From Gammaproteobacteria bacterium (GTDB lineage Bacteria > Pseudomonadota > Gammaproteobacteria > JAJDYQ01): a DNA stretch of 64,000 bases. The notes beneath the pieces were generated by a model. It was not told the DNA's origin. It made no database searches and was given only the letters and a program-made list of their open reading frames with translations. Of this stretch, positions 2,573-55,016 are shown one piece after another (the first letter of the stretch is position 1; each line of letters begins with the position of its first letter). The stretch is taken from the NCBI GenBank assembly GCA_963662865.1, contig OY759969.1, positions 2,287,742-2,351,741 of the forward strand, given 5' to 3'. The position numbers were made by a program, and so were the translations under genes.

Positions 2573-3347
2573 TTACGACCATAATAACAGTAATCGTCGC
2601 AGAATTAAGCAATCCCTATAACCATGCCGGCTTTTCTTTACCGCCGGTACCTGTATGAGTCCGCCGCATATCGCACTTTTTGTTGCTAATAATGTAATGC
2701 GCCGGAGCTTGTAACCCCAGCCCTTTGTGTGGTCGGCAAGCTGGTTGCATTTGACCAGCCAATCGGCCAGCTTTTCGTTAAGCAAGCCCAAGTCTGCAAA
2801 CAATGGGCCTTCATGGAAGTCAACAAACTGTTCTTGGGCAATCCGGCTAAAACGAGAGTGTTCAATAATATGCGTGGTCAACAAGTGCTATAATGCAAGG
2901 ATGAAAAAGTCTATCGCACTCGCTCTCGCACTTTTGTCGTTCCCGCTCGGTGCTACCGAGCGAGTGCTGCTGGACTCACAAATCATCGCCAATCTGCCGA
3001 TAGATCGCCCGCAATCGCTCGACGAGATCGCACACGGCAAGTGGGGCTATGCGATTTTTGACCCCGAAAAGGTTCCGGTGTCAACCCGATACAAAATCGT
3101 CTCCGATCAAAGCAGACAATGCCTGACTCTGCGTTGAAGCAGACACTCTCCCCTTGACGGCCAAATCCGTTAAAAACGCCTCCATTTCCGCCTTGCCCAA
3201 CTCGACGGGATGGCGTTTATTGTGAAACAGGATATAGCGCTTAATCCAATTCAAGTAACTTTGTTCAGTCCTGATCGAATAATTCAATCGCTGCAAGCGC
3301 TCTCGCACCTGACTCAAGAAGGGAGATTTCATTTCTTTATTTTGCAT
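2573..3347 (-). pseudogene. intI: integron integrase (intI) pseudogene: N-terminal fragment (3130..3347) and a weak C-terminal-like fragment (2573..2884), separated by an inserted duplicated segment
   Basis: ORF 3081..3347 translates to VRERLQRLNYSIRTEQSYLNWIKRYILFHNKRHPVELGKAEMEAFLTDLAVKGRVSASTQSQALSAL. This matches the conserved N-terminal SAM-like region of integron integrases ([34 protein letters not shown]...VSVSTHRQALAAL). The ORF then runs into the antisense of the inserted repeat. ORF 2573..2884 contains HIIEHSRFSRIAQEQFVDF, weakly resembling the IntI segment HHMYDQTFQRAFKRAVEQ. The central roughly 170 aa of the integrase are absent. Confidence 0.65.
2885..3130 (+). repeat. duplicated copy (about 90% identity) of the 5' end plus 20 bp upstream of the DUF3047-like gene at 8186..8905 (original about 8659..8912, opposite strand)
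   Basis: ORF 2727..3137 encodes MKKSIALALALLSFPLGATERVLLDSQIIANLPIDRPQSLDEIAHGKWGYAIFDPEKVP. ORF 8186..8992 encodes MKSSIALVLTLLSLPLGAAERVLLDSQIIANLPIDRPQSLDEIARGKWGYAIFDPDKVP. The DNA aligns including the TATAAT-containing leader. Confidence 0.85.
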
Positions 3348-3516
3348 GATTTCGGCAAGATAAAATACGATTTAAAAACAAAAAATTGAATTAAATCAAT
3401 GGCATAAATAAATATCAATATTTCTTAATGCCAGAAACAGACGAATAATTTTAACACAAAAATTTTGTATCTGTCTGCATTCCATGATAGATTGGGAGAT
3501 CTACTAGTAGTTAGCA
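3348..3516 (+). other. putative attI / integron promoter region with a GTTAGCA crossover-like site at 3510
   Basis: AT-rich non-coding stretch between the intI start codon and the first cassette ORF. It ends in GTTAGCA, similar to the GTTAG(G/C)C cores of the downstream attC sites. Confidence 0.4.
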
Positions 3517-3539
3517 GGTAAAAACTTGAAGGGTGACTC

Positions 3540-3899
3540 ATGAGTAAACGATTAAGAGGTTCCTTCAGTGTCTACAAAGAAACCAATAAGTATAAAAACT
3601 TTGTGCAAGTTGAGATGCTTATCATTTCAATCATTATTGGCTATTCAGCATCATCCTGGTTTGTTTGGCTCATTTCATGTTTTTTGCTAGTAGGCGCACT
3701 TGGGACAAAAATCGAAATGATCATTGGCTGGGTTGTCACAATTTTATTGGCGATTTTGTCTACACTACTTTTATTCGAAGGCTCACAAAACCTAGAATTT
3801 AGTCTAGTTTTTGGTTTTTTACTGGGTGGAGTGTCTTGGTATATACATGATTGTGGAAACATATACTGGCGTGACTTTGTTGAGGCTGAATGGTGGTAA
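3540..3899 (+). CDS. small membrane protein (cassette 1, first ORF)
   Basis: 119 aa with three or four hydrophobic helices. AT-rich. Preceded by the RBS-like GAAGGG. Confidence 0.45.
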   Translation: MSKRLRGSFSVYKETNKYKNFVQVEMLIISIIIGYSASSWFVWLISCFLLVGALGTKIEMIIGWVVTILLAILSTLLLFEGSQNLEFSLVFGFLLGGVSWYIHDCGNIYWRDFVEAEWW

Positions 3900-3912
3900 T
3901 TAAAAAGAAAAA

Positions 3913-4632
3913 TTGAAAATTATCATGCCAGACCATAGCCAGGCAAATATATTTGATGTGCACCCATCACAAGAAATGGTAGCACTTTTTAAAGACAAAC
4001 CATTTCAAGGCCAATCACCCGAAAAAGCCTCCATTATATTTCTGAGCTCTGATGCAAATTATTCTCCAGAAATTTCAAACCATCCTTTTTTCAATTTTAT
4101 TTTGGAGTACCAGAAAAATGGAATTGCATTTTGGAAAAAATATGACTGCCATCATCCCTTCCTTTTATCAAACTATCCATTCAACAAAAATACAGGTGGC
4201 GTTCCTTTTCATCGGAATTTTAGGAAAATAGGGCTCAGCACTACCCATATTGAAAACATCTCATTCCTGGAACTTCTGGATATACCAACAATAGGGAACA
4301 AGTCAAAAAACAAAAAACTCTTTTATGATCTCGTCTCAAAATCTCACCTTGCGTACATAGAAAACCTTATGATGGGAGACTCCAGCAAATTATTTTTTGT
4401 ATCTAATGGTGTTTTGAAAGATATTGAAAAGTTAAAAAAACGGTTTCCAGTATTTAAATGGCTGGATCTGCCAGTGACGGGGCGACTTTCAAAAGGAATT
4501 AAAAGCAATAAAATCGAAGAGATTTATCATTTTTCTTCTTGGCAAATACATGGTCAACTTGCTGAAATTTCAACAATAATAAATAAATGGCTGGAAAAAT
4601 CTGCTAACAAATCACTTCAGCGGATGGCGTGA
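3913..4632 (+). CDS. hypothetical protein (cassette 1, second ORF)
   Basis: 239-aa ORF, AT-rich. Its 3' end overlaps attC-1. No family recognised. Confidence 0.45.
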   Translation: MKIIMPDHSQANIFDVHPSQEMVALFKDKPFQGQSPEKASIIFLSSDANYSPEISNHPFFNFILEYQKNGIAFWKKYDCHHPFLLSNYPFNKNTGGVPFHRNFRKIGLSTTHIENISFLELLDIPTIGNKSKNKKLFYDLVSKSHLAYIENLMMGDSSKLFFVSNGVLKDIEKLKKRFPVFKWLDLPVTGRLSKGIKSNKIEEIYHFSSWQIHGQLAEISTIINKWLEKSANKSLQRMA

Positions 4633-4693
4633 ACGTCGGCGGCGCTGACGCGGCAAGGTCGGGTGGCGCCACCGCTGAGTTCAAACGTTAGCC
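4602..4693 (+). other. attC site 1
   Basis: GCTAACAAATCA ... imperfect palindrome (TGAACGTCGGCGGCGC / GCGCCACCGCTGAGTTCA) ... GTTAGCC. Confidence 0.65.
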
Positions 4694-4733
4694 CCTTTAG
4701 GGAAATTGCATAAAACAGAAGTGCCATTAAATT

Positions 4734-5471
4734 ATGGAACTGTTCTTTCTCCTTCTGCTAATTTTTATCGTTTTACCCCTGGTATTTAGCTCGGCAAAGT
4801 ACAAGGGGTATGCGGGTGAAAGAAAAGTTGTACGTAAGCTTGGAAAATTTATCGATTCGATCGAGGGGGGTAAAGCATTCCATAATGTAACATTAGCAAC
4901 GCTCGATGGAACCACTCAAATTGATCATGTTCTTTTAGCCCCCCAAGGTATTTTCGTTATTGAAACTAAAAATATGACGGGATGGATATTTGGAGGGGAG
5001 TGGCAAAAAAGATGGACACAAACCATATATAAGAAAAAAGTAAATTTCCAAAATCCTATCCACCAAAACTACAAGCACGTAAAAGCACTGGAAAAACTGC
5101 TAGAAGCGAACCCTGAAATCATATTCAATGTTGTTGTTTTTGTAGGTGATGCCAAGTTTAAAACTGCTATGCCTGACAATGTTATGAAATTAAGAGGGCT
5201 GTTACCTTATATAAATTCGCATTCTGAGCACGTTTTAACCGGCAGAGACATTGAAAAGTATGATTCATTGATAGATCGAACCATTTCAGGCAACGTGGTA
5301 TCTGATAAACAGCACGTGCATAATGTTAAGAGAAATCGTGAGAACCCTATTTGTCCAAGGTGTGGAAGCTCTATGGTGCTGCGCACAGCGAAAAAAGGAA
5401 AGAATAAAGGCTCACAATTTTGGGGGTGCTCTGGTTTTCCATCATGCAGGGCAGTCAAGAAAAAGGGCTAA
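4734..5471 (+). CDS. NERD-domain protein with C-terminal topoisomerase-type C4 zinc finger (cassette 2)
   Basis: N-terminal TM segment. The NERD-like core is GERKVVRKL...IDHVLLAPQGIFVIETKN. C-terminal CPRCGSSMVLRTAKKGKNKGSQFWGCSGFPSCR matches the zf-C4 Topo-DNA-binding pattern. Confidence 0.7.
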   Translation: MELFFLLLLIFIVLPLVFSSAKYKGYAGERKVVRKLGKFIDSIEGGKAFHNVTLATLDGTTQIDHVLLAPQGIFVIETKNMTGWIFGGEWQKRWTQTIYKKKVNFQNPIHQNYKHVKALEKLLEANPEIIFNVVVFVGDAKFKTAMPDNVMKLRGLLPYINSHSEHVLTGRDIEKYDSLIDRTISGNVVSDKQHVHNVKRNRENPICPRCGSSMVLRTAKKGKNKGSQFWGCSGFPSCRAVKKKG

Positions 5472-5580
5472 CAATGGCGGTCGAGAGGGACTTACCTTCC
5501 GCGGTGTTCGTTTGTGCTTTACGCTACGCTAGCACAAGCCTCACCTCGCTACGGTAAGCCCCTCACCGCTAGCGTTAGGC
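5465..5580 (+). other. attC site 2
   Basis: GGCTAACAATGG ... inverted repeats ... CTCACCGCTAGCGTTAGGC. Confidence 0.7.
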
Positions 5581-5710
5581 TTTATACGCATATCGTTTGC
5601 AGCACCATTACTTTATGGAATAAGTAGACTATTACTACAGATCAAAGCCCAGAAAAGTGAATTTACTGGTAAATTTACGCATATTGGTTGTTTAAGAACT
5701 AGGAAATAGC

Positions 5711-6919
5711 ATGAGTAAATTAAAACTGGGAGTTATTGGAACTTCAAGAAAAGAAGATGAACGACGTTTCCCAATTCATCCAGAGCATTTGTCTCGTATT
5801 CCTGATGCTATTCGTCGTCAGCTAATATTTGAGGAGGGTTATGGAGCACCGTTTGATATTTCAGATTCAGAGATTGCTGCTCAGGCGGGTGGGATTGCAA
5901 CACGGCATGAATTATTAGCAGACATTGGCATGGTAATCATTTCAAAACCTGTACTGGCTGATTTATTGGAGCTCCGTGAAGGAGGAACGTTGTGGGGTTA
6001 TGTGCATTGTGTACAACAGCAGGATATCACTCAGGCTGCTTTGAACCGTAAGCAGACACTTATTGCCTTTGAGGATATGTTTGTTTGGTCTCCAAGCGGA
6101 CAACGATGTCGACATACATTCTATAAAAACAACGAATTAGCTGGTTATTGTGCGGTACTGCATGCCTTACAGCTTAAAGGAATCGATGGGCACTACGGCA
6201 ACCGCCGTAAAATAGTTATTTTCAGTTTTGGTGCAGTCAGTCGGGGAGCGATATACGCGCTCAAGGCTCATGGTTTTAGAGACATTACCATTTGTATTCA
6301 GCGCCCAGACCATGAAGTTCGTGAAGAGGTGCTTGATTGTCACTACGTTAAGGTTAGAGCGGGTAACGAAGACGAAGCGCGGATGATGGTGGTGGAGCAC
6401 GATGGAGCTAAAAGACCGTTGGCTGAACTCATTCTTGAAGCAGATATCATTGTAAATGGAACCTTTCAAGAAACGGATAATCCTACTGACTTTGTGATCG
6501 AAGAGGAAAGTTCGTGCCTTAAACCTCACAGTCTTATTATTGATGTCAGTTGTGATCAGGGAATGGGGTTCTTTTTTGCTAAACCAACCACATTTAAACA
6601 ACCGATATTTAAATATAAAACGATAGATTACTATGCTGTGGATCATACACCGAGCTTCCTTTGGGAAAGCGCAACTCGCTCAATTTCTGCCGCACTTATT
6701 GTATATTTATCAACGGTTCTATCGGGCCGTGATAGTTGGCAGAAAAATGAAACTATCAGATATGCTATAAATATTGATGGTGGTGTTATTAAAAAAACCT
6801 CAATTATTACGTTTCAAAATCGCGAATCGAATTACCCCCATAACCATATCAACCGACTTGAAAATAAATCCAAGAAGCCTAACAAATCAATCCAGCCGAC
6901 CGCCTTCGGCGGCGGCTGA
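5711..6919 (+). CDS. alanine dehydrogenase/PNT-family (N5-carboxyethyl-ornithine synthase-like) protein (cassette 3)
   Basis: 402 aa. N-terminal LKLGVIGTSRKEDERRFPIHPEH, followed by a Rossmann segment IVIFSFGAVSRGAIYAL. The family assignment is from pattern recall only. Confidence 0.45.
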   Translation: MSKLKLGVIGTSRKEDERRFPIHPEHLSRIPDAIRRQLIFEEGYGAPFDISDSEIAAQAGGIATRHELLADIGMVIISKPVLADLLELREGGTLWGYVHCVQQQDITQAALNRKQTLIAFEDMFVWSPSGQRCRHTFYKNNELAGYCAVLHALQLKGIDGHYGNRRKIVIFSFGAVSRGAIYALKAHGFRDITICIQRPDHEVREEVLDCHYVKVRAGNEDEARMMVVEHDGAKRPLAELILEADIIVNGTFQETDNPTDFVIEEESSCLKPHSLIIDVSCDQGMGFFFAKPTTFKQPIFKYKTIDYYAVDHTPSFLWESATRSISAALIVYLSTVLSGRDSWQKNETIRYAINIDGGVIKKTSIITFQNRESNYPHNHINRLENKSKKPNKSIQPTAFGGG

Positions 6920-6933
6920 TTGAGGCGTTAGGC
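6876..6933 (+). other. attC site 3
   Basis: GCCTAACAAATCAATCCAGCCGACCGCCTTCGGCGGCGGCTGATTGAGGCGTTAGGC, with a GCCTAAC inverse core and a GTTAGGC core around a short palindrome. Confidence 0.75.
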
Positions 6934-6956
6934 GCAAACCACAAACTAATGTTTTG

Positions 6957-8042
6957 TTAGGATTTTTCATTTAACAGAAACTCCATACCTGCCAACTCAT
7001 GTCCATTTACGATAATGCTAATCGAATGATTACCTGCATAATATTCTCTTGTTGAAATTTTCTTGAACGAAAAAGATTTCTTAACAGTTTTGTTATTACT
7101 ATCAACTTCTGACTCAGATATTTTGAATATTTTCCTTGATAAATTACCGCTTTTCTTAACAAAATCTATCGCATATTCAATTCTAAGCCTTCCGAGCTTT
7201 TGTTTTTGCGATTCAATTGTAAAAGAGAAATTCAGATTACCTTCCATTTCAACGGATTTTTGGGTTGTGAAATTTTTAATTTCAAGATGCTCTGGCTTTG
7301 AGAAGCCAAACAGATTCATTATCTCCGGCTGCCCTTGCTTTAGTAGCGTGCGACAAGCGTGCTTAATAATCCAGTCTGTTCGTTGATTGCTACCCAGCCA
7401 GCTCTTGGCTATCTCTATTACAATCTGTGGGTTATCTTTTGATATGTCATTCAGATTATTGGCAACGCTCCTTCTTACATATTCACTATCATCATTTTTC
7501 AGTTTTTCCAATATCGGCAGGATTTGGGATGGATCTCGCTTAAATTCAGGAAGTGCCATTGCCCAGGGTAAGCGAGGCCGACATCCTTCAGATGAAAGCC
7601 GACGTACATGGTGATTTTCTGATTCAGCCCATAATTCCATTTGTGCCATCATTTTCTTATTATGTTTTTTAATGAATGGTCGAACCGCAGACTCAGAACT
7701 TGCATACGAGGTGAAGTGCTCCAAAGCATGAATGGACTCTTCATACTGATCTAAGCCATACAGCTCCACAAAACCCGGAAAAAACATATACTGAAATCCA
7801 CTGAATTTTGATGACAATTTCATTAGTATTTGAATAGCATCAGAATAATCCATTGGTAAATATTGGTGCAATGATTCTGAAATATGTTTCATCCGCTCCT
7901 TTAGTTCTTTTTCTTTCCATTCATTATCAAATATATGAGAAGAAAACCCATCTTCATCAAAATTCTCATGCAGGCTTGACACTTGTTCGCACAAGGATTT
8001 TACAAGTTCAACGTTGTATAAGTTTTTTAATGGTTCCGGCAT
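6957..8042 (-). CDS. DNA alkylation repair protein (AlkD/AlkC-like HEAT-repeat glycosylase family) (cassette 4, reverse orientation)
   Basis: 361 aa. YVRRSVANNLNDISKDNPQIVIEIAKSWL matches the DNA_alkylation repair-enzyme family signature. Confidence 0.55.
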   Translation of the reverse strand: MPEPLKNLYNVELVKSLCEQVSSLHENFDEDGFSSHIFDNEWKEKELKERMKHISESLHQYLPMDYSDAIQILMKLSSKFSGFQYMFFPGFVELYGLDQYEESIHALEHFTSYASSESAVRPFIKKHNKKMMAQMELWAESENHHVRRLSSEGCRPRLPWAMALPEFKRDPSQILPILEKLKNDDSEYVRRSVANNLNDISKDNPQIVIEIAKSWLGSNQRTDWIIKHACRTLLKQGQPEIMNLFGFSKPEHLEIKNFTTQKSVEMEGNLNFSFTIESQKQKLGRLRIEYAIDFVKKSGNLSRKIFKISESEVDSNNKTVKKSFSFKKISTREYYAGNHSISIIVNGHELAGMEFLLNEKS

Positions 8043-8185
8043 GGTTGGTTTTGAATCCTAACATTGCCAATGAGCGGCTTATTTTTCAGTGGCAAGCGCA
8101 GCACAGCTACTGAAAAATAAGTCCGATTCAATTGGGCTTGTCAAGCTTTTTTCATAATATGGTATCGGATTCAGGCAAGAAAATG

Positions 8186-8905
8186 CTATTTTGCATCCGC
8201 GCTTTCGGCCAGTTTGATCTTCCGGAAGCGAGCGACTACCTTGCCCCCGGCATTGTCGGAGTCGGCCATCAGACCGATTCCGTCGATGATCGGGTCGGTT
8301 GCAAAAATCTCGCGCCACCACGCGGCGACATTGATCGCCTGACGATGCCATATACCGTTTTCTGCATCGGCATTGGCGAATGCGCGTATCTGTACCCGGT
8401 GCAGAAAGTTGTTATAGCGTTTATACGGGCTGGGCCATAGTGCGCCAACGGCTTTTTCGCGCGCACGCACCAGATTAAGCGTCCTTGAGCTTAATTTACC
8501 GCCGGCCGACAGGTAAATGCGAAAGGCGAAGTCATCGCCATCCCTGCTATCTTCGGGCGGCCCATTGGTCGGGGACTCATCGACACGCCAATCAAAGATC
8601 AAAAAGGGAGTTGCGCTCAGGTCGAGCGGCGTCTCGAACTTCAGGTAAAAAAACGACGCGCCCCCCATGGCAGTCGCTTGCAGTGCATGCCTGCCTTGAT
8701 CGGGGACGATTTCGTATCGGGTTGGTGCCGGGACCTTGTCGGGGTCAAAAATCGCATAACCCCACTTCCCGCGTGCGATCTCGTCGAGCGATTGTGGGCG
8801 ATCTATCGGCAGATTGGCGATGATTTGCGAATCCAACAGCACTCGCTCGGCAGCACCGAGCGGCAACGACAGCAGTGTAAGAACGAGTGCAATAGAGCTT
8901 TTCAT
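8186..8905 (-). CDS. secreted DUF3047-like protein
   Basis: Signal peptide MKSSIALVLTLLSLPLGAA. The likely start is ATG at 8905 rather than the upstream TTG of the track ORF. Its 5' end is duplicated at 2885..3130. Confidence 0.55.
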   Translation of the reverse strand: MKSSIALVLTLLSLPLGAAERVLLDSQIIANLPIDRPQSLDEIARGKWGYAIFDPDKVPAPTRYEIVPDQGRHALQATAMGGASFFYLKFETPLDLSATPFLIFDWRVDESPTNGPPEDSRDGDDFAFRIYLSAGGKLSSRTLNLVRAREKAVGALWPSPYKRYNNFLHRVQIRAFANADAENGIWHRQAINVAAWWREIFATDPIIDGIGLMADSDNAGGKVVARFRKIKLAESADAK

Positions 8906-8997
8906 CTCTGCATTATAGCTCTTGTCGGCCACGCATATATTGAAGCATGGCTTTATTACCGCTAACGTGTGTCTGAAATATAGCGAGGTCAATTATT

Positions 8998-9810
8998 ATG
9001 CAGGCACAAGAAATTAATCTGGAAGAATATTTTATCCAGGACGAGCCGTATTATGAGCCGGTTGGTAATGAAATCGTTGTTTTTGAGGCTGCCTACAACA
9101 ATGGTTTGCCGATTTTATTAAAAGGACCGACCGGCTGCGGTAAAACCCGTTTCATGGAACACATGGCCTGGAAGCTGGAACGTCCGCTGATTACCGTTTC
9201 CTGCCATGATGACCTGACAGCCTCCGATCTTGTCGGGCGATTTCTGGTAAAGGATGGTGAGACGGTTTGGGTGGATGGGCCACTGGCGCGTGCGGTGCGT
9301 GCCGGGGCGGTCTGTTATCTGGATGAGGTGGTGGAGGCCCGCAAAGACACGACCGTGGTCATTCATCCGCTTGCCGATGATCGCCGGGTGCTGCCGATGG
9401 AGAAGATCGGCCACCTGCTGGAAGCGGGGCCGGAGTTTTGTCTGGCCATGTCATATAATCCCGGTTATCAGAGTGTCCTGAAGGACTTGAAGCAGTCAAC
9501 GCGCCAGCGATTTATCGCTCTCGAATTTGACTATCCCGATGCGAATCTTGAAACCCGCATCGTCGAGAAAGAGGCGGATCTGGATGCGCAAATGGCGGGC
9601 TTGCTGGTCAGATTTGCCGGTATGACGCGCAATCTGAAAGGTAACGGGCTGGATGAAGGCGCCAGCACGCGCCTGTTGGTACATGCGGGCAAGCTGATGG
9701 CGGCCGGCGTGGACCCGGTATCAGCCTGTCAGAGCGCGATAGCCCAGGCGCTTACGGATGATCCGGAAATGCTGGCGGCAGTCAACGAGCTGTCCGCATC
9801 GTTATTCTGA
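8998..9810 (+). CDS. cbbQ: CbbQ/NorQ/NirQ-family AAA+ ATPase (RuBisCO activase subunit-like)
   Basis: [55 protein letters not shown] and [21 protein letters not shown]. Length 270 aa. Near-colinear match to CbbQ. Confidence 0.85.
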
Positions 9811-23866: not shown

Positions 23867-26623
23867 TTATTCCGTAAGGATGTCTTTTATGTCCGATGCT
23901 TTTTTTGAAACCGCAAACTTCCATTTGCCGAATCTGCCGTTTTCGTTGACGGCTTTAATCCATTCTTTCATGTATGCGTGTTTTGTATCGTCTTTTTCTT
24001 TTTGCTGGCCCTTGGTTTCCAGCACAAGCAATTCTCCCGATTTCATCCGCACAAGAAAATCGGGGCGGTATTTTTTCACAATGCCATTGTAGATATATAA
24101 AACCTCAAAACCGAGATGGTCATTTTTAACCCACGCCTCAACCGCTTTATTTCTATCAAGCTCGAAAGATTCTGATGCTTCCCAGGTGCTGTCATAAACA
24201 CAGTAATTGATATGGCTTCTTTTCGCGGCTTTGCAGGGTTTGCCGGTCCGCCATGGGCGCATGTCGCCGGTTGATCGAATCGGATGGTTGTCATCAAGCA
24301 CAAGAGCGGTTTTCTCTGTATTGTTAAATTCTATTGCCTGCCAGAAATGACGAATGATCTTTGACATATTGAGCGTTATCACAAGATGTCTTCTCTTTAC
24401 ATCCTGATTAAAGAGAGCGGGCATTATCTGTATGCGGTCTGAATCCAGAAACTGTTCCGCAAGACGCACAAGTTCTGCCATCAATAGCGGCGCAGATGCC
24501 GGCCATTCAGGTTTCATTTCCTGCCAGACGATTTGTGCCGCCTTGAATACAAGGGTTTGTTTGCGGAATTTTTTCGCCAGCTTTTCAATATCAATGTCTT
24601 CAATTTGGGAAACGTCAGGCTTGTTATTTACCGTGGGCGCGATCTCCGCTATTTCAACGGTTGTTGAAGTATCCAGTTCCAGTTTTTTTATTTTTTTCCA
24701 ATCAATGGCAAGTTCGGGCCTGTAAGTTCTGTCTATGCGGATGACATTGGGCCACGAAATGGCAAACTGTCTCTTTTCATCCACAGGCCGAATGATCGTT
24801 TTCGGCGGCGGAGGCGGTGGAGGTTTATCCATGTCTTCGTGTGGCAGAAAGCTGAACGGCACACCGAAAACATTGACATATTCGGCATCAAATAATCCCG
24901 TGTCTTCATTGATTTCATAAGAAGCACGGCGTAGCCCACGCCCGATAATCTGCTCACATAACAATTGACTTGTGAATGCCCGCAGCCCCATAATCTGCGT
25001 CACTGTCCTTGCATCCCAGCCTTCGGACAACATTCCAACGGATATAACATTCTGTACTTGATCACCAGGTTTCCCTTCCTGCCCGACCGTGTTCACTTTT
25101 TCACGCAGAATTTCAGCCTGTTCTTTTTTCGTTGCTTTGCGACTACCTTCCCTGCCTGCTTTTGTTGTGCCCGGTTCCGGCTCTTTTTCCTCGGCTTTTT
25201 TCAGCACTTCCGAGTCGATATGCAAAATCCCATTGGGAGCGCATAACTCATGAATGCTAATGTCCTTATTGTCAAAGGCATACTTGATTCTGGCTGCTGT
25301 TTCCGTGCGGTTTGCGACCGTAATCATCACCGGCGGCGTTTTCGCCCCTTGTCCCTCCCATATTTCTTTTGTTTTTAACCAATCGTAACCGAGCAGGAGA
25401 TAGGCGTTTCTTACAAGGTCGGGAGGCGGTTCATGCGGTTCAGCCTTTCTGTTCAGGTCATCTTTGACTTCCTCTTCGTTGTAGATGTGATACAGGCGGG
25501 ATTTATGGGTACTGGCATTTGGCAGAGCGTCATCACGCACAACAACACGGGGTGTTTTGACAAGCCCTGATTCTATGGCGTCACTGAGTCCGAAATCGCT
25601 GACAATCCAGGGGAACAACATCTCTTCCGATGTCTTCTTGCCGCTTGGTGCAAATGGCGTAGCAGAAAAATCAAAGCAATTCAAAATCCCCCTGGTTTTG
25701 TGTATGCGGTCAAGGCCACCAACCCATTTTGTGGCCTCGTCTATTTCCTCTTTCCTGACACCTGCTATTTTTGACTGTGCCGGAACACGCCAGGCATGAT
25801 GGGCCTCATCGTTAATCACAATCAGATTTCTGGCATTGGCCATATCACCGAGAACTTCGCGGGTATATGCCTCATCGCTTTTCGCGCCGCGTTTATCCAC
25901 CCCTTTCTTCTTTTTGATTTTTTCCTCACTTTCCCAGTTCAGGGTATGCCAGTTTCTTATGAGAACCTTTGCCTGTCTCAGCTTTTCGAGCAGGGACAAC
26001 GGCACAATACCGAACTCATCGTAATAGTTCTGCCTGTTTGATGGCATCAAAACAGAAAGACGCTCCCTGACGGTCAGATTAGGCGCGACAATAAAAACAT
26101 TTTGTGAAAACCGCCTGTCTTGAGGGTAAGTGGCGCGATTGATGGCCTGCCACGCAATCAGCATGGCCATGACAACGGTCTTCCCTGTACCAGTGGCGAG
26201 CTTGGAGCACAAACGGCTCAGTTCTCTGTCCTTTGCAATTTCAATTCCGGTCTTTTCCGAGTCGGGAGTTTCAATAAACCATATCAGCGTTTCAATCGCT
26301 TCCATCTGGCAGAAGAAAAACGGGAAATCTCTTTGCTCGTTGTCCCTCCAGTGTTCAAGCAGGGCTTTGGTAATACCCGTAATTCCGGGGCAGCCCGCTT
26401 TGCACCAGGAGTCAACACGTTTACGGATTTGGTTGACGGTCGGCAGGGGAACAAAAATGCCCTTGTCCTGATGCGGTTTTGCCTTCGGGTCGGCAACCAT
26501 ATAACCCGCTTCACGACGACCCTCCACACGCTCAAGCGGGGCGTCTTCCTCGACGAACTTCCAGTGCTTGGAAGGTGCAGAGCAGGGGGAGTTGATTATG
26601 AGTGATGAGGATTTTTCAGGCAT
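23867..26623 (-). CDS. res: Type III restriction endonuclease subunit (Res): SF2 helicase plus C-terminal PD-(D/E)xK nuclease
   Basis: Helicase motif I LATGTGKTVVMA and motif II VINDEAHHAW. C-terminal endonuclease motif YRPDFLVRMKSGELLVLETKG. 918 aa. Confidence 0.85.
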   Translation of the reverse strand: MPEKSSSLIINSPCSAPSKHWKFVEEDAPLERVEGRREAGYMVADPKAKPHQDKGIFVPLPTVNQIRKRVDSWCKAGCPGITGITKALLEHWRDNEQRDFPFFFCQMEAIETLIWFIETPDSEKTGIEIAKDRELSRLCSKLATGTGKTVVMAMLIAWQAINRATYPQDRRFSQNVFIVAPNLTVRERLSVLMPSNRQNYYDEFGIVPLSLLEKLRQAKVLIRNWHTLNWESEEKIKKKKGVDKRGAKSDEAYTREVLGDMANARNLIVINDEAHHAWRVPAQSKIAGVRKEEIDEATKWVGGLDRIHKTRGILNCFDFSATPFAPSGKKTSEEMLFPWIVSDFGLSDAIESGLVKTPRVVVRDDALPNASTHKSRLYHIYNEEEVKDDLNRKAEPHEPPPDLVRNAYLLLGYDWLKTKEIWEGQGAKTPPVMITVANRTETAARIKYAFDNKDISIHELCAPNGILHIDSEVLKKAEEKEPEPGTTKAGREGSRKATKKEQAEILREKVNTVGQEGKPGDQVQNVISVGMLSEGWDARTVTQIMGLRAFTSQLLCEQIIGRGLRRASYEINEDTGLFDAEYVNVFGVPFSFLPHEDMDKPPPPPPPKTIIRPVDEKRQFAISWPNVIRIDRTYRPELAIDWKKIKKLELDTSTTVEIAEIAPTVNNKPDVSQIEDIDIEKLAKKFRKQTLVFKAAQIVWQEMKPEWPASAPLLMAELVRLAEQFLDSDRIQIMPALFNQDVKRRHLVITLNMSKIIRHFWQAIEFNNTEKTALVLDDNHPIRSTGDMRPWRTGKPCKAAKRSHINYCVYDSTWEASESFELDRNKAVEAWVKNDHLGFEVLYIYNGIVKKYRPDFLVRMKSGELLVLETKGQQKEKDDTKHAYMKEWIKAVNENGRFGKWKFAVSKKASDIKDILTE

Positions 26624-26649: not shown

Positions 26650-27444
26650 CTAATGAAGATACGACTCTATGTTTTGCTCAATGGGCTTCCTTGAATCTAT
26701 TGAACTGACTTGTGAGCCTGCAATATTTGCATCTATCAATCTACTTAAATGTTTGGATGGAATTTCTTCCTGGTTTTCAAAAATAAGCAGCGTAGATTTT
26801 TGTATCTCGTGAATAAAAAAATGTTGCAAGGTTATGGTAACTAACTTTGCTTTGTCCTGATTCGGAATTCCAAACAGAAAAAGAGGGATTCCTTCTTCTT
26901 TTTTCAGATAATAATCAATGATGTAATTCTCAGAGTTGTCTAAATCAGGCACCTGATAATCCTGCTCTAATTTAATATCAGGCTTATCGCTGATGATCTG
27001 TTCCAATAGCTCCTTTAAGTCTCTGTAAAAAGTGGATGAAAATCGATCTCTGTTCAGATAAGACAAGTCATAAACCTGATTCAGTGCCTGGCTTAAGCGA
27101 AAGATGCCTTGAGAGATTTGTTCAACTGAAACATCCACATAAAAATTGCCATTGTCCTCGTTGATTTGATTTTCAGCGAGTATCTGGTTCATCAATTTCC
27201 CTTTGTTACCTTTGAAGTACCCATCAACATTTGGAGTGTAGTAGCTCAATCTCATCATGGTATCTGCCCCATCGCTAATACGTACTTTGCCAACGTCAGT
27301 TTCCTGTAAATAGATAGAGTAATGGTCGCCATCCGGATATGAGAATGGGTTTGAGATCATTTTCTTTCCATTCTGACGCTCTATCAGTTTGATGTCGGTA
27401 CATAATTGACGGCAGAGTTCTTTCTGTAATTGATCTTTATTCAT
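26650..27444 (-). CDS. hypothetical protein (tentatively DUF1828/DUF1829-like), embedded between mod and res
   Basis: 264 aa, AT-rich. Overlaps the upstream ORF by 4 nt, so likely translationally coupled. The DUF assignment is from memory of FSYPDGDHYSIYL-type N-terminal domains and is unverified. Confidence 0.45.
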   Translation of the reverse strand: MNKDQLQKELCRQLCTDIKLIERQNGKKMISNPFSYPDGDHYSIYLQETDVGKVRISDGADTMMRLSYYTPNVDGYFKGNKGKLMNQILAENQINEDNGNFYVDVSVEQISQGIFRLSQALNQVYDLSYLNRDRFSSTFYRDLKELLEQIISDKPDIKLEQDYQVPDLDNSENYIIDYYLKKEEGIPLFLFGIPNQDKAKLVTITLQHFFIHEIQKSTLLIFENQEEIPSKHLSRLIDANIAGSQVSSIDSRKPIEQNIESYLH

Positions 27445-27920
27445 GCTAAAAAACCCTCAAAGAGATTCTGTTGTGGAGAATTCGAATGTATGCTGTAGTC
27501 TTCACATAAGCATTTGAATGCGCCATCCAGGTTTTCATACCTTTTGGTTGTTTGCGTGTCTTCATGCTCTGGGCTTCTATCGCCTCTATTGATACTTTCA
27601 GGAGTGGCATGATGGATGTGGCATTCATGGCTCGCCACATTGTTTTCATGGTTAGAACCGTTATAGCGGGAAAGCATGATGTTCTTACCGTCTTTTTCAA
27701 CAAGACGAATGCCACAAGAGAAATTCTCCATATTTGATTCATTTTGTCGGGCAAAAACCTTTATAGATAAATCAGACAAGTGATCAGGCTTATCGACACC
27801 GTCAAACTGAACATCAAAATTCCATTGCTGACTTCCTCTTTGGCTGGATTTTTGCTCCTCTTCTATGGTTTTGGGAATTTCTCTAATTGATTTCAATATT
27901 TCCTCTGAAATTTCCATCAC
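27441..27920 (-). CDS. hypothetical His/Cys-rich protein (HECHIHH motif), embedded between mod and res
   Basis: 159 aa. SRYNGSNHENNVASHECHIHHATPE is a possible metal site. The ORF starts immediately after the remnant ORF stop. Confidence 0.45.
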   Translation of the reverse strand: MMEISEEILKSIREIPKTIEEEQKSSQRGSQQWNFDVQFDGVDKPDHLSDLSIKVFARQNESNMENFSCGIRLVEKDGKNIMLSRYNGSNHENNVASHECHIHHATPESINRGDRSPEHEDTQTTKRYENLDGAFKCLCEDYSIHSNSPQQNLFEGFLA

Positions 27921-28192
27921 TCCACCTCTACAATCTCCATCACCTTCAAACTCTCAATCCTTCGATCATCCATGGTTCGAATGGTTTCAATTGCCTCACT
28001 CCGGCGGAAAAAGAATGGGAAATTCCTTTGTTCATCGTCCTGATGCAGTTTTGCCTTCGGGTCGGCAACCATATAACCCGCTTCACGACAGCCTTTCACA
28101 CGCTCAAACGAGGCGTCTTCCTCGATGAACTTCCAGTGTTTGGAAGGTGCGGCGTAGAGGGAGTTGATTATGAGAGATTTTAGGGCTAACAT
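27917..28192 (-). pseudogene. chimeric remnant: res 5' end (with an internal deletion) fused to a mod-3'-end-like sequence
   Basis: The 91-aa ORF MLALKSLIINSLYAAPSKHWKFIEEDASFERVKGCREAGYMVADPKAKLHQD|DEQRNFPFFFRRSEAIET|IRTMDDRRIESLKVMEIVEVE aligns to Res aa 8-52, then Res aa 93-112. Its tail resembles the Mod C-terminus VKIVDDRGIESLKVINVIQRK. The DNA at 28000..28192 is roughly 85-90% identical to 26318..26623. Confidence 0.8.
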
Positions 28193-28758
28193 TTTAAATC
28201 GCTGAAGGAAATTTTTTCCAAAGAGTGGATAACTTTGAAGTTCTTACCTCTGTACCAGCACTCGCCTATCGGCTGAGGTATTATTCGTTGCTTATTCAGT
28301 CTTTCTCCTTTTTCCCCTTCTTTCTCTGCAAGAACAACAAAGTGTTTTTTAATTTCAAGTTTAATATCAAAATGAGCCCACATCATTGAGACCAGATATT
28401 CCCAAACAGGAATAGTAAAAAGTATTTGTTTGCATGCTTCTCTAGGAATGCCATTTTTATCGGGAGACAAAGTTTCTTTTATCTCTAGAAAATAAATATC
28501 CATACCATTTTCATTCTGCGGCACTATAACCAGAAAATCACAAGATTTCTTGTAATCTTTTTGAATCTTTATTATCCTCGAGTGGGCTTTTCCTCCTGCC
28601 GGAATAGAAAGTTTAAGCCCATTATCAGGTGATTCAATTATTGTAAATCTAACTCGATTTCCTTCTTTCAACTCAAAACAGTTATTTTTTATAATTTTAC
28701 ATTGAATTTTTAGAAGTCTTTGTATTGCCTCCATGGGGTCAGTCATCTTTTGAATCAT
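28186..28758 (-). CDS. small PD-(D/E)xK-type nuclease-like protein
   Basis: 190 aa. SCDFLVIVPQNENGMDIYFLEIKET has the D...E-x-K spacing and resembles the Res endonuclease motif RPDFLV...LVLETKG. AT-rich. Overlaps the upstream ATPase gene end. Confidence 0.5.
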   Translation of the reverse strand: MIQKMTDPMEAIQRLLKIQCKIIKNNCFELKEGNRVRFTIIESPDNGLKLSIPAGGKAHSRIIKIQKDYKKSCDFLVIVPQNENGMDIYFLEIKETLSPDKNGIPREACKQILFTIPVWEYLVSMMWAHFDIKLEIKKHFVVLAEKEGEKGERLNKQRIIPQPIGECWYRGKNFKVIHSLEKISFSDLKC

Positions 28759-30121
28759 CCCTTTTCATATAGGTAAGCTCCGCAGATATCTGATTAATGC
28801 CATCAATCGCATTATCAAAAACCGTCATACCATCAATGCCCTGTTTATCTATAGTGCATTGTCTTAAGCCGCCTTTCTCACAAAGATAAGCTCTAACAGA
28901 TTTTGGGTCAAGATGATCAATCTCTGTATATTCTCTTTTATGCTTCACAAGAAACTCTTTTTTTCTGTCAAAATCACCGTGCAGCATAATCAGATTATTA
29001 ATTTCTTTGATTATGTAATCGCTGTAGGTTGTTATAAGAACTTTAATTCCTGCATTAACACAAAATACCAAGAGTCGTGCCATTAGAATTTGATTGGTCG
29101 GGCTAAGATGGCTTTCGGGCTCATCAATGATAAGGAGTTGATTTGGCGCAGCTTTGTGTTTTAAATAAAAATATAAATCAGAAAGCCCTCTTGCCGAGGA
29201 TGAAGCCAGATGTAATGGTATATTAAATTTATCCTTCCTTTTTCTTGAAATAAATCTGATTTCATCTTTTATCATCTTATAGTAGCCATCCATCATATAT
29301 CTTATTGGAACGACTGTATCATCTATCAATTCACTTTTTTGTCTTTGTATGTTTGACAAATCCCTGGTGAAGTCTATATTATCTTTTATGGGCTGTGCAT
29401 AACGTGCACTTTGTTTTTCAATAAAAATAAACGGATCAGAATGCCTATCGTCTGACAATTTTTGCAGCTCCTCAACCAACCTGTTCTTGGTAAAATCCAG
29501 TTCTTTATAAAACAATGAAATACCAAATCTTTCTGCGGATAAAATATGGAGATTGAGACCAATATTAAGTGCTGTTCTTGCAAGTAATCTGCATACACCA
29601 CTCTCAATGACCGATGACGGCATACTTTCTAAACCATCAGCTTCAAATATCAAATTTCTATCATCCTGAAAAAAGGATTTCATCGTTGCCTTATCTTTTG
29701 AAGGGAACTTGATTGCATCTGATGTCGTTTGATGGTCTTTTCCCCAGTCAAGTTGGAAATGTGCCCCTTCAAATTCGCTTCTTGGAGAGCTGAATACCTG
29801 ATGAATAATTTCTTGAGAAAAGAATTGATATGCTCTGTTGATCAACTCATTACGTATTTTTTCGTATTCTTCTAATTCAATACGTGCTGTGCCTGTCTCT
29901 TCTATCTGTCGTGTGACCTCTTCTATTTTTTCCTCAAACCATTCAGGGAAATCAATTATATCATAAAGGGGAAATCCATTTTTACAAAAATCTAAAAACC
30001 CATAAAGGGTATAAACAAGGTAAGTTTTACCGGTATTATTCTGCCCTGCAATGATCGTTAAATCTCCCAATTCCAGTTCGGCATCCTTGATTGGCCCGAT
30101 ATTTTTGAAGGTTGCTTTCAT
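28739..30121 (-). CDS. ABC-type AAA ATPase (AAA_15/AAA_21-like, OLD/Septu/PARIS-type) without a fused nuclease domain
   Basis: Walker A IIAGQNNTGKTYL near the N-terminus. A distal Walker B/D-loop LLIIDEPESHLSP, with a long insert between. Start placed at the ATG at 30121 (MKATFKNIGP) with an AGAGGAAAT RBS, 5 nt after the mod stop. Confidence 0.7.
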   Translation of the reverse strand: MKATFKNIGPIKDAELELGDLTIIAGQNNTGKTYLVYTLYGFLDFCKNGFPLYDIIDFPEWFEEKIEEVTRQIEETGTARIELEEYEKIRNELINRAYQFFSQEIIHQVFSSPRSEFEGAHFQLDWGKDHQTTSDAIKFPSKDKATMKSFFQDDRNLIFEADGLESMPSSVIESGVCRLLARTALNIGLNLHILSAERFGISLFYKELDFTKNRLVEELQKLSDDRHSDPFIFIEKQSARYAQPIKDNIDFTRDLSNIQRQKSELIDDTVVPIRYMMDGYYKMIKDEIRFISRKRKDKFNIPLHLASSSARGLSDLYFYLKHKAAPNQLLIIDEPESHLSPTNQILMARLLVFCVNAGIKVLITTYSDYIIKEINNLIMLHGDFDRKKEFLVKHKREYTEIDHLDPKSVRAYLCEKGGLRQCTIDKQGIDGMTVFDNAIDGINQISAELTYMKRDDSKDD

Positions 30122-30125
30122 GCTT

Positions 30126-32741
30126 TCATTTCCTCTGAATAACATTAATGACTTTGAGGCTCTCAATCCCACGGTCATCCACTATTTTAACCGCGATTCG
30201 GCTGTTTTTGCCCAATTCAAACGGCAGTGACACCGTGCCTTGGTAGGATTCTATCAGGCCTTCGTCTATTTCGGCCCTCAGGTTTCTGGCGAGTTTTGTC
30301 CAGCCGCCTTTGTCGTCTGCCATTGGGAAGAACACCTGACTCGGATACAGGCTTCTGCCGTCGTAGTCGGTGTCCAGCATCCAGACGGCGATTTTGTTTT
30401 CATCACCGGATTCCAGTTTGCCGGTTCGGGTATTGAAATAGTCAAAGCCGTTCATGTGCACCTGCCATTGCCCCATCAGTTCGCCTTTTCTGATTTGTTC
30501 TACCGCGATGTCCGGCTGGCCTATCAGCCAGAAACTTTCATTGCCTGACCGTTTCTTTTTCAGATCATCGGTTTGCAGGTCGGCGTTCATTTGCGCTTTC
30601 AGTGGTGTCACCCCGGGCCAGTTGGTTTCGTCTATATCCCTGGCGGCTTCGGGATCAAACTGAAAGGCGGCGAACACAACCATTTCAGGCTTTGGCATCA
30701 GGGTTGCCGCTTCCTGCAAGGCGTTTTCTACCTGTCGCGCTTCCAGCGGGGCGTGTTCCGGGCCGAAGGAGATCACCGCACGGCGGGGTTTATAGGCGGT
30801 TGCGGTTTCTCTTACTGCATCTGTACCGGAATCATCCGGTCTGGTTTCGGCGTCTGCATGCAGCCAGCGGCACGGCAGGGGGTCAATACGGGAAAATGAA
30901 ATGCGCTGTCCGCCCTTGCCGCGTATGCCGGTTTTCAGCAGTTCATCACGCCATTCGCTCTGGCGCAGGGTTTCGCCGGTGCGGGCAATGGTTGCATCTG
31001 CCGGAACAGGCGGCGCCTGTATATTATCAATCGGCTGCACGGTCGGAGACGGCACGGCTTCCGCGGTAAAGGGGCCGGTAACACGTGCCCGTTTACTGTC
31101 TTTTTCCGGTTGATCAAACAGGGTTTCCCTTGTAGATGGCTTTACGCCAATCAAAACGCTTGGGGATACCTTCGGAACATATTTATATTCAAACCCGCCT
31201 CCCACGCCTTCATCGGGCCAGGCCAGTTTGTAATAGTCAAATGTGGCGGTCATCAGTCGTTGTTTGGCGAGGGTCAATGCCACACGCGAAGTGTCGCAGG
31301 TGATCCAGCGGCGCCCCCATTGCTCGGCCATAGTGGCGGTTGTGCCGGAACCGCAGGTCGGGTCAAACACCAGATCGCCCGGGTCGGTCGTCATCAGGAG
31401 GCAGCGTTGTATGGCCTTAACCGAAGTCTCCACAACATATCTCTTTTCACTCGGATACATCTGCGCCGGCCAGATATTATTGATACGCCGTCCCGGCACT
31501 TCATCTTCGTACTTTTTCCACCTGAGAGAGTCCTGTTTTTCAAGTGCTTCCAGCCGCCCCATTTCTGCCAGTTTGTCCAAGCCCTGTTTTGAAACAGACC
31601 AGTGTCTGTTTTTTGAACATCGGAAAATTCTGCCCTTCCATTGATAGGGTTCGGACCTTCCGGTGGTAGAAACGCCCTGCGAGTCCAGTCCTGTGCGCTG
31701 ATAGATGCGCGCCCCCTCGGGCAGGAATTTATCGGGGTTGAAACGTTCTTCATCGGTTAATTTCCGGCAGGTGCCATCAGACAGTTCCACCGCCACATAA
31801 GAGCTAAAGTAATCCACGATTTCCGGTCGTGTCAGTGGTTCGTACAACTGCCGATACTTCGCTTGGTTTTTGTCTTTTGCATACCAGAGCAGGTAGTCCG
31901 AGACCTGCGGCAGGTGTTGTGTGGAACTGCCACTGGTAGTCGCAAATGAAATGGTGGCGATACGATTCTCCGCGCCAAAAATATCGTCCATCACGGTCCC
32001 GACTCGATGCACATTTTCATCGCCAATCTGCACAAAGCACGAACCGCTTTCGGTCAGCAATTCACTTGCCAGCAAAAACCGGTCACGCAGATAGGTCAGA
32101 TACGAATGAATACCCAGTTCCCAGGTGTCGCGGAACGCCTTGATCATTTCCGGTTCAGAGGTTAAGTCCTCATCTTTGCCATCCCGTACCTCGCGTTTAC
32201 CCACAAACGGCTGAAAATTGGAGCCGTATCTAATGCCATATGGCGGGTCCATATAGACACACTGCACCTTGCCTGCCATATTCTCTTTTTGCAGCAGCGA
32301 GTTCATCACCAGCAGCGAATCACCGGCAATCAGGCGGTTGCTCCAGTTGTTGGCGTGTTGGTAAAACTCGATCGCTTGGCGCAGCGGGATGCTCTGCTCT
32401 TCTTCAAAAAGCGACGCCTGTCTGCCGTTACCGCCGTTGCTGTTTCTGACCGCTTCGATGATGGTGCGCGGGTCAATGCGCTCGTGGACATGCAACGATT
32501 GGGTCGGCACGGCAAAAGATGTGTGCTCGGCCTTGCCGGCCCATTGCAGTTGCGGGTCCAGGTGCGGGTCGTGTTGCCAGGTCTTTTTTTCTCCTTTGTC
32601 CGGGTCGGTTTTGGGCGTTACCAGCCCGGCGGGCGGATTGTTTGCCCTTTCCTCGCCTCCATGAGAGTAGGATTCGATTTTGCGTTTTTTCGGCGGCAAG
32701 TTTGTACACACCTTTTGATGATTCCTCCCATGGTACCGCAT
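30126..32741 (-). CDS. mod: Type III R-M N6-adenine DNA methyltransferase (Mod, beta-class) with a long C-terminal extension
   Basis: LIAGDSLLVMNSLL...GKVQCVYMDPPYGIRYGSNF (motif IV) precedes motif I LVFDPTCGSGTTATMAEQWGRRWITCD. 871 aa versus about 600-650 for typical Mod proteins. Confidence 0.8.
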   Translation of the reverse strand: MRYHGRNHQKVCTNLPPKKRKIESYSHGGEERANNPPAGLVTPKTDPDKGEKKTWQHDPHLDPQLQWAGKAEHTSFAVPTQSLHVHERIDPRTIIEAVRNSNGGNGRQASLFEEEQSIPLRQAIEFYQHANNWSNRLIAGDSLLVMNSLLQKENMAGKVQCVYMDPPYGIRYGSNFQPFVGKREVRDGKDEDLTSEPEMIKAFRDTWELGIHSYLTYLRDRFLLASELLTESGSCFVQIGDENVHRVGTVMDDIFGAENRIATISFATTSGSSTQHLPQVSDYLLWYAKDKNQAKYRQLYEPLTRPEIVDYFSSYVAVELSDGTCRKLTDEERFNPDKFLPEGARIYQRTGLDSQGVSTTGRSEPYQWKGRIFRCSKNRHWSVSKQGLDKLAEMGRLEALEKQDSLRWKKYEDEVPGRRINNIWPAQMYPSEKRYVVETSVKAIQRCLLMTTDPGDLVFDPTCGSGTTATMAEQWGRRWITCDTSRVALTLAKQRLMTATFDYYKLAWPDEGVGGGFEYKYVPKVSPSVLIGVKPSTRETLFDQPEKDSKRARVTGPFTAEAVPSPTVQPIDNIQAPPVPADATIARTGETLRQSEWRDELLKTGIRGKGGQRISFSRIDPLPCRWLHADAETRPDDSGTDAVRETATAYKPRRAVISFGPEHAPLEARQVENALQEAATLMPKPEMVVFAAFQFDPEAARDIDETNWPGVTPLKAQMNADLQTDDLKKKRSGNESFWLIGQPDIAVEQIRKGELMGQWQVHMNGFDYFNTRTGKLESGDENKIAVWMLDTDYDGRSLYPSQVFFPMADDKGGWTKLARNLRAEIDEGLIESYQGTVSLPFELGKNSRIAVKIVDDRGIESLKVINVIQRK

Positions 32742-54670: not shown

Positions 54671-55016
54671 GTGCCGGAACAGACTGATTCATGCTGCGCA
54701 ATTACTCCGGTGCAGACCGGAGCGTGTCAGATGGGGAGATACTCGTCTGCAAGGTGTACAGACCATCATCAAGAGGTAAAAGGGGGGTGTTTTCTGAGAG
54801 CCACGATAACGACTTCCTCTTCGGTTGCCGGTACCATGGAACGGGCATCCTGCGGCCCCGGCCCGATGTCTTCAACACTGTGGCGTTTGCGCCACTTCGC
54901 CGCGGCCTCTTCATTGATGCCATAGCGCTGACTTAACTCTTTGAGCAAAGCCGTTGATCACTGTATTGACGTTCGGATCACATATGTTGTCGTGGTGCTT
55001 GCATGTAATAGCTGAC

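Follow-up and report, generated by a model that had tools for sequence, protein, structure and literature searches.

A divergent PDC-M24-like gene pair as probable cargo at the mod/res junction of a Type III-like restriction–modification operon

The gene pair and its operon

The stretch analysed here, 64,000 nt of contig OY759969.1 from a gammaproteobacterial assembly (hereafter the window), carries on its minus strand a single tightly packed array in which mod and res, the genes of a Type III-like restriction–modification (RM) operon, are separated by a PD-T4-4 cassette, a 91-aa open reading frame (ORF) and a pair of small overlapping genes, A and B, that lie directly before res. This pair is our subject. 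By sequence comparison A–B appears to be a divergent clade of the PADLOC candidate PDC-M24, and it is most likely cargo in a recombination hotspot at the normally overlapping mod/res junction, independent of mod and res themselves. The array, read from mod to res, consists of the following features.

30126..32741, minus strand: mod, 871 aa, Type III-type N6/N4 DNA methyltransferase (PADLOC MTase_III, 2.4e-152; Pfam N6_N4_Mtase); 5' boundary of the cargo hotspot
28186..30178, minus strand: first embedded cassette, a PD-T4-4 A-type ATP-binding cassette (ABC) ATPase plus a 190-aa partner
28739-30178, minus strand: PD-T4-4 A-type ABC ATPase (PADLOC PD-T4-4_A, 2.7e-108)
28186-28758, minus strand: 190-aa partner of the PD-T4-4 ATPase (PD-T4-4 B-like)
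27917..28192, minus strand: scar pseudo-ORF, 91 aa, in-frame fusion of a res 5' fragment and a mod 3' remnant
27441..27917, minus strand: gene A, 158 aa from the ATG at 27917, DUF6978-related alpha/beta protein with a conserved histidine cluster
27441..27444, minus strand: 4-nt ATGA overlap of the A stop and the B start, read from the sequence as TTAGCATGAATAAA
26650..27444, minus strand: gene B, 264 aa in two domains, N-terminal DUF1828 and C-terminal alpha/beta
23867..26623, minus strand: res, 918 aa, BPTD_3080-family restriction endonuclease (NCBIfam NF046055, 1089 bits) with a Pfam ResIII helicase domain; 3' boundary of the cargo hotspot

Both ORFs of the pair and their 4-nt overlap, as described in a first-pass annotation of this DNA, were confirmed from the sequence, and the overlap suggests that A and B are translationally coupled. 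The distance from the stop of B to the ATG of res (26623) is 26 nt and not 27 nt as had been stated. The length of 159 aa given for A holds for the ORF call, which runs from a GTG (27441-27920), but the likely start is the ATG at 27917, which gives 158 aa: a Shine-Dalgarno-like GAGGTGGAG lies just upstream, the homologous products all start MEIS..., and the database copy (P0001) is itself 158 aa long. A–B has the same orientation as mod and res and is packed closely with both, which makes a common transcript probable. The G+C content is 0.35-0.40 over both cassettes versus ~0.52 in mod and 0.46-0.49 in res.

Protein families and predicted folds

The product of gene B contains DUF1828 (PF08861), as first proposed, at residues 33-124 (65 bits against a gathering cut-off of 22; E = 7.8e-18), and the family is matched by 33 of 33 B homologues. 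Its companion in the original proposal, DUF1829 (PF08862), gave no match at E <= 1 in B or in the same 33 homologues; we therefore rejected this lead, and the only literature context of DUF1829, DS-6B/HipAD, does not apply here. The match to phrog_5059 extends along the whole of B (5e-33), and residues 3-158 of the 264 match the PDC-M24B models PDLC04539 (E = 1.2e-14) and PDLC04540 (E = 1.8e-13).

For A the route to a family was longer. Searched against Pfam, NCBIfam and PADLOC, the protein itself returned noise only, with no PADLOC match at E <= 0.1; it does match phrog_27326 (1e-22). A profile (A1) built from 18 homologues found 753 cluster representatives, 78 of which were scanned against family models. 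DUF6978 (PF22398) was matched by 48 of these 78 remote homologues (40 at E <= 0.01; best 1.2e-12) and by one of the 18 close ones (1.9e-8), and three PDC-M24A models were matched by 26, 6 and 4 of the 78 (up to 36/78; best 4.7e-9). The homologues that carry these matches are tied to the gene A query by profile E-values of 1e-13 to 1e-75. With B matching PDC-M24B and the remote relatives of A matching DUF6978 and PDC-M24A, the pair as a whole is best described, at the level of sequence profiles, as a divergent PDC-M24 clade.

The predicted structure of A (predicted local distance difference test score, pLDDT, 85.6; predicted template-modelling score, pTM, 0.82) has an N-terminal helix (residues 6-14), seven main antiparallel strands and a C-terminal helix (131-141), and Foldseek found no match to it in the PDB or BFVD at E <= 1e-3. 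Sequence-profile searches of the PDB with A and with B likewise gave nothing meaningful. Across 124 family members the conserved residues of A are K17, R58, S68, G70, R85, N87, G88, H91, H101, H103, Y128, A134 and D141. The first-pass annotation had seen in this protein a potential metal site of histidines and cysteines, which survives as a histidine cluster only: H101 and H103 are conserved in 100% of the members and H91 in 90%, whereas no cysteine reaches 85% family-wide. Close relatives have other residues in place of C99, and the (near-)invariance of C69 and C137 is limited to the close set of 18 sequences. A fourth family histidine (position 93, 91% conserved) is an asparagine in the window's A.

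A relationship of A to the toxin family TumE (PF20126/DUF6516) was considered because of two weak matches and a similar verbal description of the fold (PMC10584680). The Pfam model was matched by 2 of the 18 and 1 of the 78 homologues at E ~0.05, well below the gathering score, and since one match in 78 at E = 0.05 is noise, the relationship was rejected at the sequence level.

The AlphaFold model of B supports the two-domain nature suggested at first sight (pLDDT 87), and the pTM of 0.51 means that the relative orientation of the domains is uncertain. Structural searches, which returned nothing for A, place SfsA (4dap, 4dav), NucS (2vld) and EndoMS (5gke, 5gkj) at the top of the PDB matches of B (4dap, E = 1.1e-3, probability 0.99; 2vld, E = 2e-3, probability 0.95; 5gke, E = 5.8e-3, probability 1.00, with 112 aligned columns at a root-mean-square deviation of 4.6 A). 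The small subunit of R.BspD6I is also among the matches. Conservation among 84 sequences is concentrated on acidic residues in both domains: D38-G39-D40, D58 and D177 are 100% conserved, and D197, K198, R235, C11 and C15 exceed 90%. D197 and K198 lie side by side where a helix begins.

Scars and cargo at the mod/res junction

The 91-aa ORF between the two cassettes is made of pieces of the genes that bound the array. Positions 28178-28037 are 90% identical to the start of res (26606-26465) and positions 28040-27984 are ~75% identical to res 26345-26289; as the second segment aligns further into res, 120 nt are missing between the two. Positions 27972-27939 are 76% identical to the last codons of mod (30181-30148). 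The scar begins in overlap with the stop of the PD-T4-4 B-like gene and ends in overlap with the ATG of A. From mod to res, the operon therefore runs through cassette 1 (PD-T4-4), the res5'-mod3' scar and cassette 2 (A–B). Other genomes have mod ends before A that resemble the mod-3' remnant more closely (87.5% in L002 and L038, 83% in L001) than the window's own mod end does, which suggests that A–B carried its own flank with it. On these identities, the cassette was probably brought in, mod-3' flank included, by homologous recombination with another RM allele. The event might have been one crossover, at the res-5' homology, with mod3'-A-B-res5' on the incoming molecule, or alternatively an unequal exchange between two operons.

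Equivalent scars are found in L002 (5390-5929, 9429-10001 and 11383-11637), each built from ~240 nt of res 5' and then ~285 nt of mod 3', which are 79-90% identical to the genuine gene ends. Every scar reads in frame with no stop codon and overlaps a neighbouring gene at either end. The ratio of non-synonymous to synonymous differences (pN/pS) between the scars and the real gene ends is 0.31-0.55, a range compatible both with selection on the scars and with divergence that preceded recombination; they may be plain recombination products, or they may persist because they maintain translational coupling.

Searching metagenomes with a res alignment turned up 45 related loci that hold both mod and res (locus range L059-L138). 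At 31 of these the two genes either overlap, in most cases by 4 or 1 nt, or are <=139 nt apart, and at the other 14 (31%) a cargo of 480-4018 nt sits at exactly the mod/res junction. Examples of this cargo are:

L087: MNT+HepT toxin–antitoxin (TA) pair
L120: Bro-N protein
L064, 8901-9956: B-like DUF1828 protein plus an 88-aa DUF2283 protein, no A
L081: 572-aa ABC ATPase
L136: 771+486-aa pair with a res-5' scar

The junction is thus a precise and recurrent insertion site, and any ORF between the mod 3' and res 5' ends in this RM family becomes a candidate cargo gene, which is of use in the search for more of them. The B-like protein of L064 matches the B profile at E = 2.7e-45 and is without the C11/C15 pair; because it is accompanied by a DUF2283 protein and not by A, DUF1828 proteins may work with alternative small partners. 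Two further loci (L069, L077) have 8-10 kb upstream of res in which no mod was found, and these may hold larger arrays. The mod-res operon of L002/L008, from a metagenome-assembled genome (MAG) of Candidatus Poriferihabitaceae, holds four cargo units: PD-T4-4; a 330-aa nSTAND3/AAA protein with a 776-aa S8 peptidase (5929-9436); A–B; and a 398-aa SLFN/AlbA_2+HATPase_c_4 protein. In the window, a PADLOC PDC-M47B match (3e-8) falls within the first cassette. Outside the operon, other low-G+C stretches of the window (3000-8000, 52000-53000 and 55000-56000; 0.37-0.42 versus ~0.52 elsewhere) suggest further horizontally acquired islands.

Distribution across genomes and phages

In a database of 5.8 billion proteins, close homologues are scarce (22 of A and 40 of B), and as these share contigs the pairing of A with B is far more frequent than chance. 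The linkage is kept in all six close-homologue contexts, which differ in what accompanies the pair:

L001: mod, A–B, res, with no other cargo
L002: mod, PD-T4-4, scar, AAA+S8 protease, scar, A–B, scar, SLFN/AlbA_2, res
L003: mod, A–B, M78+PIN, res
L004: mod, A–B (degraded), ABC ATPase+157 aa, res
L005: mod, ABC ATPase+180 aa, M78..., A–B, res
L006: A–B alone, flanked by shikimate-dehydrogenase-like and FemAB-like genes

A wider genome scan that took a single genome for each species gave 51 loci, almost all in MAGs and spread over many phyla, and in 51 of 51 A is followed immediately by B, overlapping or abutting. Mod/res genes of the present type lie beside the pair at only eight of these loci:

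L007, L008, L038, L054: mod, A, B, res
L009: A, B, res; the contig ends just upstream of A
L012, L040: res, A, B, mod, in a more distant RM system
L042: A, B, mod, PD-T4-4A, x, res

The gene order is reversed in L012 and L040, and A–B has therefore been embedded in at least two RM architectures. The remaining 43 loci have no homologue of this mod or res nearby. Two near-duplicate contexts were excluded from the neighbour counts, and the other 41 are heterogeneous: their 133 neighbouring proteins represent 138 Pfam families, and no family occurs more than three times. A handful of these neighbours are defence-related (Eco57I/Type IIG, DrmMI, PDC-S27, PDC-S01, mads) and many are housekeeping genes. 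Many of the carrier genomes appear to derive from the same long-read MAG studies. One of them, a Candidatus Aldehydirespirator MAG (OZ252146.1), has two copies of A–B ~44 kb apart (L053, L013), one with a frameshifted A.

The pair also occurs in phages, again with A and B linked. In the Pseudomonas phages 5399, phita81A and 5371, A–B lies directly downstream of cI on the same strand, and on two IMG/VR contigs it stands behind a co-oriented cI-type repressor (HTH_3+Peptidase_S24). No RM system is present beside these phage copies, and plasmid searches with A and B gave no match. The three cI-adjacent contexts, in temperate phages or prophages, are:

L058, 4323-6771: Pseudomonas phage 5399
L140, 4834-7244
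L139, 5027-7116

In L058 and L140 an 84-85-aa ORF of unknown family stands between the repressor and the pair; in L139 gene B is frameshifted.

What the pair may do

We lean, with moderate confidence, towards A–B being an autonomous, horizontally mobile two-gene module of defence type, acting against phages directly or through abortive infection. It is favoured over an accessory role in RM because A and B are always linked, are usually found without an RM system, and lie next to cI in phages. The company that the pair keeps inside RM operons is that of defence genes, with PD-T4-4 in the window and PD-T4-4-like ATPases, M78+PIN and SLFN/AlbA_2 proteins at related loci, and the original description of A–B as embedded holds: the pair is cargo inside an RM operon, alongside genes of this kind.

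How such a module might work can be sketched from the two proteins. B would be the nucleic-acid-handling component, a sensor or a nuclease, its putative binding domain lying ahead of a nuclease-like alpha/beta domain; this role is assigned from the invariant acidic residues in both domains and from the NucS/SfsA-like model. A would be its small partner, with a cluster of lysine, arginine, asparagine and histidine residues (K17, R58, R85, N87, H91, H101, H103, Y128), and could serve as a metal-binding or RNase-like effector or as a regulator of B. The ATGA overlap would let the two be made in fixed proportion, and their complex would be triggered by infection. We offer this division of labour, in which B handles nucleic acid and A is the catalytic or regulatory partner, as a tentative proposal.

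Several observations weigh against the reading of A–B as an autonomous defence-type module. The window's A matches neither DUF6978 nor PDC-M24A directly, the link being made through the profile search, and in B the match to PDC-M24B is confined to the N-terminal 155 residues. The Foldseek support for a nuclease fold is marginal (E-values of 1e-3 to 6e-2; global TM-scores of 0.25-0.30, which are low because the domain orientation is uncertain). The canonical D...(D/E)xK motif is absent from B, in which D177 lies on a strand and the next strand (188-193, LFLFGI) has no (D/E)xK; a nuclease activity, judged from the model, is therefore plausible and no more. Most loci (43/51) have no recognisable defence genes alongside the pair. 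Co-transcription with mod and res is deduced from spacing only: a scan for promoters and terminators did not differ from shuffled sequence and so speaks neither for nor against a promoter inside the cassette. Finally, a literature search returned no demonstrated function for PDC-M24, DUF6978 or DUF1828, with PDC-M24 unmentioned and the two DUF families mentioned incidentally.

Among the alternatives, a TA or addiction module fares best, although we consider it unlikely. Here A–B would have no direct anti-phage role and would be kept by post-segregational killing, stabilizing the RM locus or prophage only incidentally. The small size and overlap of this two-gene operon would fit, as would its variable and often solitary contexts, the presence of a classic MNT-HepT pair at the same mod-res junction in L087 and the pairing of a B-like protein with a DUF2283 protein in L064, DUF2283 being, we presume, a typical small TA partner. 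However, neither A nor B has a recognisable DNA-binding antitoxin domain, and the sequence link of A to TumE is at noise level. Gene decay does not discriminate: L053, L056 and L057 have a disrupted A beside an intact B, L012 has the converse, and in L004 both genes are interrupted, so that either partner may be lost with no clear asymmetry (all of these loci are MAGs, in which sequencing errors are possible). TA and abortive-infection roles are, moreover, not mutually exclusive.

That A–B modulates or senses res, as the first-pass annotation proposed from its place directly before that gene, now seems very improbable. The same holds for the wider form of the idea, in which the pair are accessory subunits of the Mod-Res complex, and for its PrrC-like variant, in which they are held inactive by the RM system and released when a phage inhibits it. 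The idea draws on the shared strand and the 26-nt spacing, on a recurrent association with mod/res (5/6 close-homologue contexts and 8/51 species-level loci), and on the precedent of PrrC in EcoprrI as an embedded guard system. It fails because gene order is not conserved and because most copies have no res nearby. A–B is next to mod in L001, L003 and L004 and next to res in L005 and the window; other cassettes intervene in L002, L003 and L004, with A–B in mid-array in L002; and the order varies among mod-A-B-res, res-A-B-mod and A-B-mod...res. An obligate RM subunit would show conserved linkage and a fixed position relative to res, neither of which is observed. The RM system is missing from 43 of the 51 loci, from the standalone copy in L006 and from the phage copies beside cI, while conversely about two thirds of the related RM operons have mod and res directly overlapping, with no cargo at all. 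A PrrC-like guard role is possible for the embedded copies and is not required by the data. In annotation, A and B should not carry RM-subunit labels.

Least probable of all is that A–B is a mobility function, with B a homing-type nuclease and A its helper that cut empty mod/res junctions for recombinational copying: the likeness of the B model to two-domain PD-(D/E)xK nucleases, the duplicated junction sequence that flanks a cassette seemingly travelling with its mod-3' flank, and the great diversity of contexts would suit this, but the same scars or insertion point occur without A–B around other junction cargo (PD-T4-4, MNT-HepT, Bro-N, ABC ATPases), so that insertion does not need the pair, no pair-specific repeats or target duplications were seen outside RM contexts (though no systematic search was made), and a position behind cI in phages better fits a host-benefit gene expressed in lysogens.

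Returning to the autonomous defence-type module, we also put forward, as a bolder combination that we hold to be possible rather than probable, that the mod/res junction is an integrase-free cassette array and that A–B truly works against phages by means of a new effector, A. In such an array, homologous recombination at the conserved mod-3' and res-5' ends would swap defence and TA cargo and stack it, leaving between the cassettes in-frame, stop-free Res-N/Mod-C chimeric ORFs that perhaps keep the operon translationally coupled. The effector would be a ~160-aa histidine-cluster protein, its fold unmatched among solved and viral structures, that works with a NucS/SfsA-like DUF1828 protein. If the array is real, it would explain in concrete terms how defence systems become 'embedded', a phenomenon described until now as a pattern only, and if A–B protects against phage, the PDC-M24 candidate becomes a real system. 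A role would then also follow for three families of 'unknown function' (DUF6978, DUF1828 and two PHROGs), one of them with a fold unmatched in the PDB and BFVD. A–B itself is a divergent member of an uncharacterised candidate family, and what is most original in the analysis came as a by-product, namely the recombination scars and the precise junction hotspot.

Comparison with known systems

The fold of TumE has been described as two helices packed on a seven-stranded antiparallel sheet, with no PDB match (Durairaj et al., 2023; PMC10584680). That wording resembles the model of A, compared by description only, and in both cases small proteins are encoded in two-gene operons. The partner differs, however, being a 264-aa DUF1828 protein in A–B, whereas TumA genes were synthesised as fragments of 289-388 bp (PMC10584680).

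The two-domain enzymes NucS/EndoMS and SfsA, the top Foldseek PDB matches of the B model, combine an N-terminal DNA-binding beta domain with a C-terminal PD-(D/E)xK nuclease. B shares with them an invariant aspartate (D177) on a beta-strand of its C-terminal domain. It is unlike them in sequence (7-10% identity), in missing the (D/E)xK on the following strand, and in its N-terminal domain, which is Pfam DUF1828 with an invariant acidic cluster of its own (DGD...D).

Lambda lysogens express rexA and rexB on a transcript shared with cI. The A–B copies of Pseudomonas phage 5399 and its relatives and of the two IMG/VR contigs are likewise a two-gene unit directly downstream of, and co-oriented with, a cI-type repressor. 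There is no similarity of sequence or fold to RexA or RexB, however; B appears soluble and nuclease-like, and no membrane protein is evident.

PDCs were defined by their embedding within defence systems, or 'guilt-by-embedding', in a study that describes 145 of them as untested (Payne et al., 2024; 10.1101/2024.01.29.577857). Like PDC-M24, the window's pair consists of a ~160-aa DUF6978-type protein followed by a ~260-aa DUF1828 protein, adjacent and co-oriented, and like all PDCs it is embedded in a DNA-modification defence system. Unlike PDC-M24, its A is too divergent for the PDC-M24A models and its B is matched over the N-terminal 155 residues only, and PADLOC is therefore not expected to call this locus PDC-M24. 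The host system differs as well, as Type III-like operons, of which the present one is an example, were not part of that screen (10.1101/2024.01.29.577857).

The same study cites PrrC in EcoprrI as a precedent for an embedded guard (10.1101/2024.01.29.577857). In contrast to PrrC/EcoprrI and to BrxU/BREX, A–B is found mostly outside RM systems and shows no sign of functional coupling to its host RM system. It also differs from other embedded systems in using one precise site, the overlap of the mod stop and the res start, with cassettes that are separated by res5'-mod3' scars. The mechanism of embedding was left open (10.1101/2024.01.29.577857); the scars described here point to homologous recombination, and they help to explain how defence islands are assembled.

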